The translations under genes were made by a program, and so were the position numbers. A stretch of 64,000 nt of DNA, taken from the NCBI GenBank assembly GCA_963712765.1, contig CAVQIX010000004.1, forward strand, positions 496,503 through 560,502, in the 5' to 3' direction. This stretch comes from an uncultured Solirubrobacterales bacterium. GTDB lineage: Bacteria > Actinomycetota > Thermoleophilia > Solirubrobacterales > 70-9. The notes below the pieces were generated by a model. That model saw only the letters and a list, made by a program, of their open reading frames with translations, did no database searches and was not told the origin of the DNA. The stretch's first letter is position 1; the number at the start of each line of letters is the position of its first letter. Below are positions 37,399 to 47,657 of this stretch, one piece after another.

Positions 37399-38250
37399 AT
37401 GAGCGATCCGAACGAGCTCGGAGCACTCGTCGCCCGAGCGCTGGCCGAGGATCTCGGCGACGGCGACCTCACCGCGGAGGCGACGGTTCCGGCCGTGGCT
37501 CGCGCACGGGCTCGCATCCTCCAGAAAGAGCCGGGCGTCGTCTTCGGCTTCGAGGCGGCTCGCGAGGTCTTCCGCCAGACCGGGGCAGGAGATCTGGAGA
37601 TGTTGATGATCGAGGGTCAATGGCGTAACGCCGTTCCCGCGGAGGTTGCGTTCGTCAGTGGCCCGGCGCGGGCGCTACTCGGGGCCGAGCGAGTGGCCCT
37701 GAACCTGCTCGGCCACCTGAGCGGGGTTGCCACGCTGACGGCCCGCTTTGTCGAGGCCGCCCGCGCCGGCTCACCCTCCGTCTCGATTCTCGACACCCGC
37801 AAGACGACCCCCGGCCTTCGCGCCATGGAGAAGGCGGCAGTCAGGGCGGGCGGTGGTCGCAACCATCGCATGGGTCTCTATGACGCGATCCTGATCAAGG
37901 AGAACCACATCGCCCTCGGTGGCGGGCTCGGCCCGGCGGTGGCCGCGGCCCGCGAGGCCCAGCCGGAGCTACCGATCGAGGTCGAGTGCCGCGACCTCGC
38001 CGAGGTCGATGCGGCGCTGGAGGCCGGGGCGGACAGACTCCTGCTCGACAACATGGACTCAGCCGCCCTGAGGGTCGCTGTCTCGGCCCGAGACGGCGGC
38101 GGGTCTGCCGCGAAGCTCGAGGCCTCCGGCGGGGTCAGCCTCGAGACTGTCGCTGAGATCGCCGCCACGGGCGTCGACCTGATCTCGATCGGGGCCGTGA
38201 CGCATTCTGCCCCGGCGCTCGACCTGTCGATGCTCCTGGAGCCGGCGTGA
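37399..38250 (+). CDS. nadC: nicotinate-nucleotide diphosphorylase (carboxylating) / quinolinate phosphoribosyltransferase
   Basis: 283 aa. LDTRKTTPGLR, KAAVRAGGGRNHRMGLYD, IKENHI, LLDNM, EASGGV. Confidence 0.95.
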   Translation: MSDPNELGALVARALAEDLGDGDLTAEATVPAVARARARILQKEPGVVFGFEAAREVFRQTGAGDLEMLMIEGQWRNAVPAEVAFVSGPARALLGAERVALNLLGHLSGVATLTARFVEAARAGSPSVSILDTRKTTPGLRAMEKAAVRAGGGRNHRMGLYDAILIKENHIALGGGLGPAVAAAREAQPELPIEVECRDLAEVDAALEAGADRLLLDNMDSAALRVAVSARDGGGSAAKLEASGGVSLETVAEIAATGVDLISIGAVTHSAPALDLSMLLEPA

Positions 38251-46200: not shown

Positions 46201-47657
46201 CGCTGCAGGGCGGCGGAGGCGAGGACGACCTCGACGGTGGCAGTGAATCGGATACCTCGGACCACTCCGACGCCGCCGGCCCACTCGACCTCGACCTCGG
46301 CGCCGGGACCGCCACGGCAGGCGGGGAGACGGACTCGCTGACGGCGATCGAGAACGCTGCCGGCACCGCTGCCGCCGACACCCTGACGGGCAACGGATCC
46401 CCGAACGCCTTCGCCGGCGCCGGAGGCGGCGATTCGCTGTCTGGTCTCGGTGGAGCCGACGACCTCGACGGCGAGGGCGCCGATGACACGTTGCAGGGCG
46501 GCGCCGACGACGACACCCTCACCGGCGGCGCCGGCATCGATCTCGGCGATTACTCGGACATCGCCGTCGGGATCGACGCCGACCTTGGCGCGGGTCAGGT
46601 TCTCAACGCCTCCACCGACCAGATCGCCGGGGTCGAGAACCTGCTCGGAACCGCTCTCGGGGACACTCTGACGGGTGACGGCGCGGCCAATGTCCTGAGC
46701 GGAGGGGATGGAGACGATGTGCTCGACGGCGGTCTCGGCTCCGACACGCTCCAGGGTGGAGCGGACTCCGACACCCATGACTCCCAGGACGGAGGCGTCG
46801 CCGATGTGAACGATTGCGGGAGCGGTGCCGACGCCGCCGCCGTCGATGTCCAGGATTCGGCAACCAACTGTGAGACCGTCACCAACCCACCCGCCGGCTC
46901 GCCGGGTGGTCCCCCGGCGCCCGACCCCGACCCCGACCCCGACCCCGACCCGGACCCGAATCCAGACCCGGACCCGGGCGACGACCTCACGTGCCAGGGC
47001 GAGAAGGCGACGGTCGTCGGCACCGAGCGCTCGGAGACCCTGACCGGAACTCCGGGACCCGATGTGATCGTTGCGGGGGACGGCGACGATGAGATAGACG
47101 CCCAGGGTGGGGATGATCTGATCTGCGCGGGCGGGGGCGACGACGTGATCGAGGCCGGTGGCGGCGCCGACGAGGCCTATGGCGAGGGAGGTGCCGACAC
47201 CGTCAACGGCAAGGGTGGTGGCGACTCGGCGTTCGGCGGCGGCGGCAAGGACACGCTCGACGGCGGCGGTGGTGGTGACACGGCCGAAGGCGGCGCCGGC
47301 AAGGACACGGTGAAGGGCGGGCGCGGCAAGGACACCCTGAAGGGGAACGGCGGCAAGGACACCCTGAAGGGGAACGGCGGCAAGGACACCCTGAAGGGGA
47401 ACGGCGGCAAGGACACCCTGAAGGGGAACGGCGGCAAGGACACCCTGAAGGGCGGCGGCGGCAAGGACACCCTGAAGGGCGGCGGCGGCGCCGACACCCT
47501 CGATGGAGGCAGCGGCAAGAAGGACAAGCTGAAGGGCGGGGGCGGCGCCGACAAGCTCAAGGGCGGCAAGGGCAAGAAGGACACCTGCGATGGGCAGGGC
47601 GGCAAGGACAAGCTGAAGGGCAAGAAGCCCGGCTGCGAGACGGTCAAGAACCTGTAA
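43266..47657 (+). CDS. giant RTX-like calcium-binding-repeat surface protein (start uncertain; frame is open from 43023)
   Basis: Dozens of GGxGxD nonapeptide repeats. Five copies of the D(Y/H)S.....D.DLGAG.....TD.I.G.EN..GT..DTLTG module. A signal/anchor-like segment (SRRARAGIAAFAASVAFTLSFGLIASPAGA) lies ~160 codons after ATG 43266. (PD)n linker. GGKDTLKG tail. Confidence 0.85.
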   Translation: MVPRRPVGFVIVADEGGRVPALAPDRYAVLRLSSASSDGPALRAARNWLSRLPEARGLPVALAASGSARAEAMALSREPGRPVGALLLAGEPIAPETVTLVPTLELPAQAQPGSDLVADFLAEHLSIPPNPALSHRERRLLARRIERGLRRRGRRHSGSLSRRARAGIAAFAASVAFTLSFGLIASPAGAVVSSGYDTATGQLTVESDGAGDGITLDCNTADPTGKVRVNGVVLAGGNATIEDGFDMDVNCLEPLKLDVNGQGGADTLDVTDVEPVAFTNLTSIISLRGGGGDDHVFGSQLEDSATGAAGEDSVAGNGGDDTVRGAADDDTINGGFGDDTVDYANAPAGVDVDISSVPGAATGGDGTDLISLVEHVTGSAFGDTIDSAAASRIDGGDGGDSITGSTGAETMNGDGGVDTIDGGAGSDSIVGGADGDSLVGAGNDDDLLGGNGDDTLLGGSGNDDIDGEGDDDAADYSAVGSAIDADLGAGLVIGEGTDTIAGLEILEGTAQADTIDGATTQETLRGNGGPDTINAQTTTGGNGADSIEGGGGGDLIDVSLSGSALGGVGDDTVTVKPTTGSGFNQTFDLGGGGSDELRDQTTPSGGGNPGGRILTDTAMTGLGAGNDTIAGLERASIVGDSLDNVLDAKQFSGRVTLSGGAGSDTLRSAAGNDLLDAGADLDQFDQEVDADQTLTDTLATGDGTDTIAGFDAAMLSVEVGGSGRTLDSSGFTAGPTTLVGAGMDDSLIGSPQADEIRASSGNDTLLGGAGADTLDPGNFGNLPTPGDSVDGQGGTNTIRFAQATPSWDIDLAAGNATTGSTGTTTLASITHAVGTSGDDTLTGDGQANSLEGGSSSDLISGGGGSDTLETDDIAASPGDDTLSGEAGSDELIGDDEGTDRLVQTADADLTLTDDSLTGQGTDSLSGIEEVSLTGGASANTLVASDWTAGPVSLDGAGAADSLLGSPAGDLIEGEAGDDTLQGGGGEDDLDGGSESDTSDHSDAAGPLDLDLGAGTATAGGETDSLTAIENAAGTAAADTLTGNGSPNAFAGAGGGDSLSGLGGADDLDGEGADDTLQGGADDDTLTGGAGIDLGDYSDIAVGIDADLGAGQVLNASTDQIAGVENLLGTALGDTLTGDGAANVLSGGDGDDVLDGGLGSDTLQGGADSDTHDSQDGGVADVNDCGSGADAAAVDVQDSATNCETVTNPPAGSPGGPPAPDPDPDPDPDPDPNPDPDPGDDLTCQGEKATVVGTERSETLTGTPGPDVIVAGDGDDEIDAQGGDDLICAGGGDDVIEAGGGADEAYGEGGADTVNGKGGGDSAFGGGGKDTLDGGGGGDTAEGGAGKDTVKGGRGKDTLKGNGGKDTLKGNGGKDTLKGNGGKDTLKGNGGKDTLKGGGGKDTLKGGGGADTLDGGSGKKDKLKGGGGADKLKGGKGKKDTCDGQGGKDKLKGKKPGCETVKNL
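46920..46970 (+). repeat. hexanucleotide (cccgac)n tract encoding a (Pro-Asp)n linker
   Basis: cccgac x4, then ccggac ccgaat ccagac ccggac. Translates as PDPDPDPDPDPNPDPDP. Confidence 0.9.
47325..47486 (+). repeat. 27-bp in-frame tandem repeat (4 identical + 2 variant copies) encoding GKDTLKGNG
   Basis: ggcaaggacaccctgaaggggaacggc is repeated exactly at 47325, 47352, 47379 and 47406. Variants with ggcggcggc occur at 47433 and 47460. Degenerate copies flank the array. Confidence 0.95.

Follow-up and report, generated by a model that had tools for sequence, protein, structure and literature searches.

Gene layout of the locus

We analysed a 64-kb stretch of DNA (about 70% G+C; called the window here, at its full length) from an uncultured Solirubrobacterales bacterium, contig CAVQIX010000004.1. 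In its middle lie genes for a receptor Ser/Thr kinase, a regulator that combines a forkhead-associated (FHA) domain with a helix-turn-helix (HTH) domain (FHA-HTH), a methyltransferase (MT), a GT4-type glycosyltransferase (GT4) and a giant protein with RTX-type calcium-binding repeats. The original prediction, made from the letters of the window, joined all five into one phospho-regulated surface-protein modification module. Based on gene neighbourhoods in related genomes, we favour, at somewhat better than even odds, a different reading, in which two independent units lie side by side: unit A, the kinase and FHA-HTH pair, and unit B, a GT4/MT cassette that would modify a Sec-exported RTX-like protein. 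The genes are as follows; loci used for comparison carry labels such as L001.

37399..38250, plus strand: nadC, quinolinate phosphoribosyltransferase (Pfam QRPTase_C/N), backbone; its 4-nt overlap with the kinase gene is also found in L087-L091
38247..40187, plus strand: PknD-like receptor Ser/Thr kinase, 646 aa, unit A (Pkinase, 141 bits)
40219..40902 (open reading frame, ORF, to 40947), minus strand: regulator with an FHA and a probable, divergent LuxR/GerE-type HTH domain, 227 aa, unit A (FHA, 61.9 bits)
40925..41767, minus strand: Methyltransf_24-type S-adenosylmethionine methyltransferase (MT), 280 aa, unit B (41 bits against a Pfam cut-off of 26.3)
41767..42993 (ORF to 43038), minus strand: GT4-type GT-B glycosyltransferase, Glyco_trans_4_3 (PF12000), 408 aa, unit B
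42994..43112: divergent intergenic region of 119 bp between the GT4 and RTX-like genes
43113..47657 (ORF from 43023), plus strand: RTX-like (beta-roll repeat) giant protein, 1514 aa, unit B (HemolysinCabind, 238.8 bits)
47665..48522, minus strand: fpg/nei DNA glycosylase (Pfam), backbone; directly precedes FHA-HTH in the cassette-less relatives L087-L090

Pfam bore out the five genes and the domains claimed for them, the HTH by a match slightly under cut-off, and several boundaries were revised. The GT4 frame placed at 41767..43038 is real; its start moves to the GTG at 42993, which gives 408 aa and agrees with the database protein. The TGATG at the GT4/MT junction is indeed a stop/start overlap, with one base common to both genes. 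Strand and order of the proposed GT4, MT, FHA-HTH operon also stand. The FHA-HTH start is the second Met at 40902, 22 nt past the MT stop, which removes the ORF overlap with MT; the resulting 227 aa is the length of nearly all among the 120 homologues listed. The convergent ends of the FHA-HTH and kinase genes are 31 nt apart (40188-40218), as described. Similarly, the GT4 operon does diverge from the calcium-repeat gene, whose product measures 1514 aa from the GTG at 43113 instead of about 1460 aa. This start is set by the peptide M-x-x-T-Q-R-R-L-H-S-Y-R, which stands at the beginning of the partner in 12 further distinct loci; a stop codon stands immediately 5' of the peptide in L027, and a frame plot of G+C at third codon positions (GC3) is consistent with it.

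Since nadC runs 4 nt into the kinase gene, the latter belongs to the transcription direction of prfB-FIST-nadC. The flanks are housekeeping genes by Pfam, with SecA, a lactonase-PKD protein, GST, prfB, FIST and nadC on one side and fpg/nei, nadA and an MFS transporter on the other. The nearest genome matches of the window are Thermoleophilia metagenome-assembled genomes (Solirubrobacterales/Thermoleophilales), the best GT4 identity being 85%.

Independent occurrence of the two units

To compare neighbourhoods, we used 86 GT4-centred loci (20 from Thermoleophilia, 66 from elsewhere), with phmmer and a nonapeptide-motif count, and seven FHA-centred loci that total about 105 kb. Four of these are near-identical; the distinct ones are L087, L090, L091 and L093, and L092 is a short contig that duplicates L091.

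By housekeeping identity the nearest relatives of the window are L087-L090 (PrfB 87%, NadC 77%, NadA 86-88% identical), the PrfB of cassette-bearing genomes being 78-80% identical to that of the window. In L087-L090 the order is SecA-GST-x-prfB-FIST-nadC-kinase, a convergent FHA-HTH gene, and then fpg and nadA, with no MT, GT4 or RTX gene between FHA-HTH and fpg, exactly where unit B sits in the window. This interval likewise holds no cassette in L091 and L093, and the 4-nt coupling of nadC to the kinase is kept without one. The cassette, in turn, occupies the same nadC...fpg-nadA interval in five genomes (L001, L002/L010, L005, L014 and L027) that lack kinase and FHA there; SnoaL, DUF2330 or hydrolase genes take the place held in the window by the kinase and FHA-HTH. 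The kinase was found at 0 of the 20 Thermoleophilia GT4 loci, and the sole FHA match among these loci is weak (28 bits) and about 7 kb from GT4 (L018).

Thus, the five genes showed no co-conservation in the relatives, a result that the original prediction had itself named as refuting its single module. The part of it that let the kinase and FHA-HTH tune the cassette fared better in one respect: the pair itself is conserved and signalling within it is plausible, whereas the pair is not co-conserved with the cassette and the promoter region holds no inverted repeat. Collectively, as judged from gene order, units A (nadC-coupled kinase and convergent FHA-HTH) and B (GT4-MT and RTX) persist independently, and control of the cassette by the kinase and FHA-HTH is possible as a lineage-specific add-on only.

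Kinase genes near GT4-RTX pairs in Anaerolineales (L025, L031) were considered as a kinase link and rejected, with FBPase and in some cases a luciferase-like gene lying in between. The Planctomycetota and Chloroflexota loci gave 15 kinase matches near GT4; kinases are very abundant in both phyla. One FHA-centred locus, L093, carries FHA-HTH, lacks GT4 and contains between nadA and fpg an RTX-like ORF (2355-4865, minus strand) with repeated D.IDCG.G.D...C-E-V modules; this locus looks degraded, its nadC and kinase genes being fragmentary.

Distribution of the GT4-RTX cassette

That GT4 and MT go with the giant RTX-like gene was borne out by a neighbourhood conserved across many genomes and phyla. 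A giant ORF with RTX motifs lies within 3.6 kb of GT4 in all 20 Thermoleophilia loci and within 1 kb in 18 of them. The arrangements are divergent, co-directional or flanking, and the cassettes stand in at least 10 unrelated genomic contexts, beside housekeeping genes with no relation to one another (permease, SDR, ribonucleotide reductase, RapZ, biotin carboxylase). MT follows GT4 in 14 of the 20 and is present also in Tautonia (L038). In other phyla, 15 of 66 loci have an RTX ORF no more than 1.2 kb from GT4 and 3 more have one about 5 kb away; these belong to Anaerolineales/Chloroflexota, other Actinomycetota, Gaiellaceae, a deltaproteobacterium and Planctomycetota. Clustering of all ORFs within 4 kb of GT4 in the 86 loci returned RTX proteins as the largest neighbour cluster (31 loci) and no further conserved partner gene. 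The background is low: the FHA-centred loci, roughly 105 kb in all, contain one RTX ORF, and the remainder of the window contains none. Furthermore, the GT4 and RTX ORFs overlap or lie 4-30 nt from each other in L004, L019, L025, L036 and L041, the GT4/MT overlap of 1 nt is conserved in L001, L002, L003, L005 and L006, and one contig (JACJWZ010000002.1) carries two cassettes, L007 and L008.

Proteobacterial GT4 homologues are 33-42% identical to that of the window, and PF12000 was confirmed on those of Rms149 and Polaromonas. On four proteobacterial plasmids or megaplasmids GT4 stands beside RTX, and type I secretion system (T1SS) genes accompany the pair in three of them (Rms149, Polaromonas and Phaeobacter; not Ralstonia). 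Pseudomonas aeruginosa plasmid Rms149 (L102, NC_007100, 15746-30608) has the order ABC-HlyD-GT4-hypothetical gene-RTX, with overlapping reading frames, adjoining insertion sequence (IS) elements and an RTX protein of 3064 aa; in this cultured host the set resembles a portable GT4-RTX-T1SS unit. The hypothetical gene (257 aa) was considered as an MT homologue and rejected, being unrelated to MT and free of Pfam domains. In Polaromonas JS666 the RTX gene diverges from ABC-HlyD-TolC-GT4, the Phaeobacter inhibens plasmid P72 of about 68 kb (L098) carries GT4-RTX with T1SS genes, and the Ralstonia megaplasmid has GT4-hypothetical gene-RTX. Aureimonas has SapC-MT-GT4-pyruvyltransferase-T1SS.

Architecture and predicted export of the RTX-like protein

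The RTX-like protein matches HemolysinCabind in 14 stretches and holds 42 nonapeptide motifs at aa 340-1475, in tandem repeats of the GGxGxDxUx form of the RTX family. Its parts, all on the plus strand, are:

43113..43148: conserved N-terminal peptide MRPTQRRLHSYR, which opens the RTX partner, with a single copy each, in 12 further distinct loci
43200..43586: degenerate dienelactone-hydrolase-like alpha/beta domain, aa ~30-158 (profile against PDB 2o2g)
43659..43733: Arg-rich segment ALSHRERRLLARRIERGLRRRGRRH, directly before the signal peptide (RR.LAR.L.R.LRR in the leader alignment)
43740..43835: predicted Sec-type signal peptide, A-x-A = AGA241 (A239 and A241 invariant in 15 sequences)
43836..44147: two-Cys head module VVSSGYDTATGQLTV...RGGGGDD, which opens the predicted mature protein (hidden Markov model matches in 24 loci)
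46911..46985: Pro-Asp linker PPAPDPDPDPDPDPDPNPDPDPGDD (from the translation)
47238..47654: C-terminal Lys-rich nonapeptide array (GGKDTLKGN...) with a Cys pair at its end (from the translation and motif positions)

No T1SS genes lie nearby, as the original prediction had noted: an ABC signature scan and Pfam of the flanking genes found none in the window, which contains one RTX ORF and one ABC signature (LSGGE at 57011), not adjoining the RTX-like gene. None appeared at the other Thermoleophilia loci examined either, by gene tables for L001-L006 and Pfam of the flanks for L007-L009, L011 and L017. Export had been called unexplained for this reason; the protein itself offers an answer at the sequence level, namely an internal Sec-type signal peptide behind a leader of about 210 aa. 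The only hydrophobic segment of the protein (aa 217-241; Kyte-Doolittle maximum 1.94 at aa 217-236) comes after a strongly basic stretch, and the whole signal peptide spans aa 210-241, with a basic n-region and an A-x-A end invariant in 15 sequences. On these features, the anatomy of a Sec signal peptide is recognizable some 210 residues into the protein, and the leader is predicted to stay on the cytoplasmic side by the positive-inside rule. A T1SS substrate is exported through an uncleaved C-terminal signal and carries no N-terminal signal peptide; in the latter respect the RTX-like protein departs from that pattern.

The leader contains a dienelactone-hydrolase (DLH)-like domain, which a 15-sequence profile aligned with PDB 2o2g over about 130 positions (E=2.6e-13). 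Its nucleophile motif (GxS/CxG) is lost, Ser being replaced by Gly/Ala in the family consensus and apparently by Gly in the window, and the domain, judged by eye, is apparently truncated before the expected catalytic-His region; it is probably degenerate and dead. The leader is rare: exhaustive phmmer among 1.84 billion proteins returned 17 representative clusters. Sixteen matches begin within the first ~50 residues, 10 of these in proteins of 684-2072 aa. The Arg-rich segment, probably helical, occurs also in partners without the DLH-like domain (L017 and the deltaproteobacterial L032).

Just past the export signal lies the two-Cys head module of about 100 aa. Single-sequence phmmer with this module gave no matches, whereas a profile built from 11 partners matched partner proteins once each, at this position, in 24 loci, some of them from Gaiellaceae, Anaerolineales and Planctomycetota. 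Because the module is common to partners across phyla, these proteins are homologous beyond their repeats. At the other end, after the Pro-Asp linker, the C-terminal array holds about 10 copies of GGKDTLKGN, a basic variant of the RTX repeat, for which wall binding is one possibility.

The GT4 and MT enzymes

GT4 matches PF12000 (176.8 bits) and Glycos_transf_1, PF00534 (74.7 bits), both above cut-off. Its AlphaFold 2 (AF2) model (predicted local distance difference test, pLDDT, 84.5) has the two-Rossmann GT-B fold of retaining GT4-type enzymes, and Foldseek matched it to MshA, BshA, SPS, GlgM, PglA and PimA, with template-modelling scores of 0.65-0.76 for MshA, BshA, SPS and PimA. A PDB sequence search found no solved relative of the N-domain. 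GT4 has no strong hydrophobic, transmembrane-like segment, and by the model it is a soluble cytoplasmic GT-B enzyme. The canonical EX7E motif is not intact: in the alignment with BshA the first Glu corresponds to the invariant Phe310 and the second to Asp/Asn, with an invariant E336 downstream, and this loss is family-wide in the PF12000 sequences compared. Homologues of GT4 number more than 5000, at 55-85% identity across phyla. MT, assigned by its Methyltransf_24 match, has no PDB sequence relative and no NCBIfam family, and no curated NCBIfam family names any of the five proteins.

Upstream of GT4, a -10-like TAGGAT stands at 43006-43001 (minus strand), 7 nt 5' of the GTG. TAGNNT recurs 6-8 nt 5' of the GT4 start in the window, L001, L002, L008, L009 and L011, and this conserved position suggests that the GT4 mRNA is leaderless. 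The GTG of the RTX-like gene is preceded at 5 nt by GAGG. In the divergent region (42994-43112) no operator-like inverted repeat and no sigma-70 consensus match was found; in the scan for promoters and terminators, terminator-like sites were at or under chance level. The 119 bp are poorly conserved between cassettes.

The kinase and FHA-HTH regulator of unit A

The kinase consists of a Pkinase domain (aa ~16-290), one strong hydrophobic, presumably transmembrane segment (aa ~320-338) and an NHL propeller (aa ~360-646; Pizza6 designs, E=7e-19; PknD 1rwi, E=2e-5), so the extracellular beta-propeller claimed for it was confirmed. This is the architecture of PknD. Because it scores 122 bits against a cut-off of 839 with the NCBIfam PknD equivalog model, we regard the kinase, on sequence grounds, as an architectural analogue of PknD and not an orthologue.

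The regulator matches FHA (PF00498) and, slightly under the 23.5-bit cut-off, GerE (22.0 bits); precomputed PF00196 matches are present in four homologues. LuxR/GerE-type domains made up 17 of 18 PDB matches of its C-terminal profile, all weak (best E=4e-4). The AF2 model (pLDDT 88.9) shows a beta-sandwich and four C-terminal helices, with the FHA domains of OdhI, GarA and EmbR as best Foldseek matches (root-mean-square deviation ~2 Å). The FHA consensus R/S/H/N of the phosphothreonine pocket is intact, and GR...SR.HA...NG is invariant in 25 sequences. In the model, a conserved N-terminal extension containing NPT is confidently packed and may serve as a phospho-switch. The family has more than 2600 matches; the best 120 are 55-75% identical, and the few named ones are Solirubrobacterales.

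Kinase and FHA-HTH form a conserved convergent pair beside nadC in L087-L091, and this pairing makes signalling from the kinase to FHA-HTH plausible. The kinase would write the phosphothreonine that the FHA domain reads, and unit A would comprise a PknD-like kinase co-transcribed with prfB-FIST-nadC together with the convergent FHA-LuxR-type regulator. Translational coupling ties the kinase gene to nadC and not to the GT4/MT/RTX cassette. The genes prfB, FIST, nadC and kinase share one direction in the window (35156-40187) and in L087-L091, and across Solirubrobacterales the nadC and kinase genes keep their overlap of 4 nt, which pairs a signalling kinase with an NAD-biosynthesis gene.

Other features of the window

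A protein with CWB2 cell-wall-binding repeats is encoded at ~16406-17900 (minus strand), adjoining an AIM24-domain gene at ~17990-18604 (plus strand); the long ORFs of the two overlap on opposite strands, and the boundaries are approximate. Two neighbouring GGDEF diguanylate cyclases, GAF-GGDEF and PAS-GAF-GGDEF, lie at 24401-27826. Between SecA and GST, a protein with a lactonase-type 7-bladed beta-propeller and PKD (32076-33863) has a first-position GC of 0.55, unusually low for the genome. As listed, the nadA ORF (48176-49681) carries about 180 additional N-terminal residues, which overlap fpg on the opposite strand; its real start is probably near 48650.

Discussion

We give a probability of about 0.55 to the reading that two independent units lie side by side at this locus and that unit B is a GT4/MT cassette modifying a Sec-exported RTX-like protein. 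The RTX-like protein would cross the membrane through Sec and not through a type I system, as its leader and signal peptide suggest; cleavage would probably occur after Ala241, leaving the leader in the cytoplasm. GT4 would add a sugar to the still unfolded protein in the cytoplasm, before or during export, and MT would methylate that sugar, much as GtfA/GtfB act on serine-rich repeat adhesins, HMW1C on HMW1 and HlyC on HlyA. We infer this modification from the conserved adjacency, the tight spacing, the soluble GT-B enzyme and the lack of other glycan-pathway genes.

Several observations weigh against this reading, and glycosylation and methylation of the RTX-like protein are putative. With the EX7E motif broken, the sugar donor of GT4 and even its activity are uncertain. 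Cleavage after Ala241 is a prediction only, and the segment could be an uncleaved signal anchor. Moreover, many of the remaining points would fit an alternative that we consider rather unlikely, although it is the strongest of those weighed: GT4 and MT would add a methylated sugar to a wall polysaccharide or glycolipid, and the calcium-binding protein would attach there. The closest structural relatives of GT4 (MshA, BshA, PimA, PglA) use small molecules or lipids, and there is no protein glycosyltransferase among its top 50 Foldseek matches or its PDB sequence matches. Most planctomycete GT4 loci have no adjoining RTX gene, and 20 of them (within L049-L083) sit with sugar-nucleotide-like genes; read by eye from the translations, these are a PglF-type sugar 4,6-dehydratase-like membrane protein and a DegT-type aminotransferase-like gene. 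Several proteobacterial contexts hold pyruvyl-transferase, rfb or other glycosyltransferase genes, which fits a glycan product. The GT4 copies of L007 and L008 are 99% identical and their RTX partners about 44%, so that enzyme and substrate show no co-divergence; the pattern points to a GT4 gene recently duplicated, or homogenized by gene conversion, beside fast-diverging partners. An anionic polymer is a possible ligand of the Lys-rich C-terminal repeats, and the organism has a CWB2-type wall-binding protein.

Against such an anchor stands the minimal content of the cassettes, which in Thermoleophilia, Chloroflexota and Gaiellaceae consist of GT4, with or without MT, and RTX only, with no priming transferase, flippase or polymerase. 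The cassette was duplicated as a unit, with a GT4 gene beside each RTX gene, and on Rms149 the T1SS-GT4-hypothetical gene-RTX set is self-contained between IS elements. Given this minimal content and duplication, the tight or overlapping GT4-RTX and GT4-MT spacing, and a GT4 gene that a mobile element carries within a T1SS cluster, the RTX-like protein itself appears a more likely target of modification than the glycan anchor.

The original prediction, in which the kinase senses an envelope cue and FHA-HTH tunes expression of GT4/MT and/or the RTX gene within one module, now seems improbable. Some observations speak for it and to that extent against two independent units: in the window FHA-HTH follows MT by only 22 nt on the same strand and is probably co-transcribed with GT4-MT, and the pairing of kinase with FHA-HTH is conserved. 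Elsewhere, too, cassettes are flanked by LuxR-type regulators, though of different architecture (two LuxR-C proteins in Phaeobacter L098, an AAA_16+GerE protein in L006:298-3027), either by chance or because LuxR-family control is recruited repeatedly, and PknH-EmbR-embCAB of Mycobacterium tuberculosis is a known precedent, with an FHA similarity to EmbR seen by Foldseek. Opposed to these are the Thermoleophilia cassettes without kinase, the kinase/FHA-HTH pairs without cassette and with nadC coupling kept, the unrelated housekeeping flanks of cassettes elsewhere, and a divergent region with neither inverted repeat nor much conservation. The story of a kinase, an FHA protein, a glycosyltransferase and an adhesin is here mostly an accident of gene order.

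That GT4 is a housekeeping glycosyltransferase beside which giant RTX genes happen to land is very improbable: in about three quarters of the GT4 loci outside Thermoleophilia no RTX gene lies within 10 kb, and GT4 is unusually conserved (55-60% identical across phyla), yet the adjacency recurs in at least five phyla, in varied orientation and context, with genes that are closely spaced or overlap and that also occur inside T1SS operons. In addition, a whole cassette has been duplicated, and the background density of RTX genes is low.

A broader form of the preferred reading, direct modification by unit B, is tentative and more doubtful than that reading itself. PF12000 GT4s would be a pan-bacterial, as yet unrecognised class of dedicated modifiers of RTX/beta-roll surface proteins, glycosylating the intrinsically disordered calcium-free repeats or the head module in the cytoplasm; the Thermoleophilia MT would cap the sugar, and in monoderm Thermoleophilia the substrate would have swapped type I secretion for Sec through a new pre-sequence of ~240 aa. 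That pre-sequence (N-terminal peptide, dead DLH domain, Arg-rich segment and cleavable signal peptide) may then dock the modifying enzymes or delay translocation.

According to a 2010 review of RTX proteins, it is surprising and unexplained that RTX-type genes occur in Actinobacteria with no genes for type I secretion (PMC3034196). For such proteins, the locus and its relatives offer a concrete answer at the level of predicted features, Sec export behind a long, conserved and partly folded leader. From Thermoleophilia to replicons of Pseudomonas, Ralstonia, Polaromonas and Phaeobacter, PF12000, an uncharacterised glycosyltransferase family, is repeatedly paired with RTX giants, as would be expected if RTX surface proteins underwent a step of modification or anchoring. 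We found no description of this pairing or of the leader in the searchable literature. Several hosts of such pairs are genetically tractable, and the GT4/MT-RTX cassette with its Sec leader is the part worth following up.

Comparison with known systems

With classical RTX/T1SS systems (HlyA/HlyBD-TolC, HlyC) unit B shares the Gly/Asp nonapeptide calcium-binding repeats and the very large size of the substrate. It also shares with HlyA/HlyC a gene for a dedicated modifying enzyme, here a putative one, adjoining the substrate gene, and the proteobacterial homologues of the window GT4 lie in or beside T1SS-RTX clusters. Unlike those systems, the window has no ABC, membrane-fusion or outer-membrane protein genes of this kind in its 64 kb, the protein has a predicted Sec-type signal peptide after an N-terminal leader of ~210 aa where those substrates rely on a C-terminal signal, the candidate modifier is a glycosyltransferase plus methyltransferase where HlyC is an acyltransferase, and the actinobacterial host is presumably monoderm.

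Among surface proteins, the Caulobacter S-layer protein RsaA is T1SS-exported and anchored to O-antigen, and SLH proteins bind pyruvylated wall polymers; both would be parallels for the glycan-anchor alternative. SwmA, oscillin and RsaA resemble the protein described here as RTX-type surface proteins that are glycosylated (SwmA, oscillin) or glycan-anchored (RsaA), although their hosts are diderm. The cyanobacterial RTX-like surface proteins SwmA and oscillin are glycoproteins, and the part of the 2010 review that treats them gives no modifying enzymes (PMC3034196).

The serine-rich repeat (SRR) adhesins GspB and Fap1 with GtfA/GtfB, HMW1C-HMW1 and TibC-TibA/AAH-AIDA-I share with unit B a giant repeat surface protein encoded beside a putatively dedicated cytoplasmic glycosyltransferase, and an N-terminal export leader of atypical length. 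GtfA is a GT4-type enzyme, and in such systems modification is presumed to precede export of the unfolded chain. The differences are equally clear. SecA2, SecY2 and Asp genes of an accessory Sec system are absent from the window, where the only SecA (29046-31925) is housekeeping, 11 kb away and syntenic in cassette-less relatives; the repeats are of RTX type and not Ser-rich; the leader holds a folded pseudo-hydrolase domain; a methyltransferase belongs to the unit; and glycosylation of the protein is here a prediction.

Unit A resembles PknH-EmbR-embCAB in that a receptor Hanks kinase gene stands beside the gene of an FHA-containing transcription factor. The FHA fold of FHA-HTH is like that of EmbR, the kinase ectodomain is PknD-like, and glycosyltransferase genes lie nearby in the window genome. 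Unlike EmbR, FHA-HTH ends in a probable, divergent LuxR/GerE HTH and has no SARP/BTAD domains by Pfam, only the FHA part aligning, and the pair is conserved with nadC/fpg and not with a glycosyltransferase. By these likenesses, the closest working analogies would be the dedicated cytoplasmic glycosyltransferase/adhesin pairs for unit B and the PknH-EmbR-type kinase/FHA-regulator pairs for unit A.

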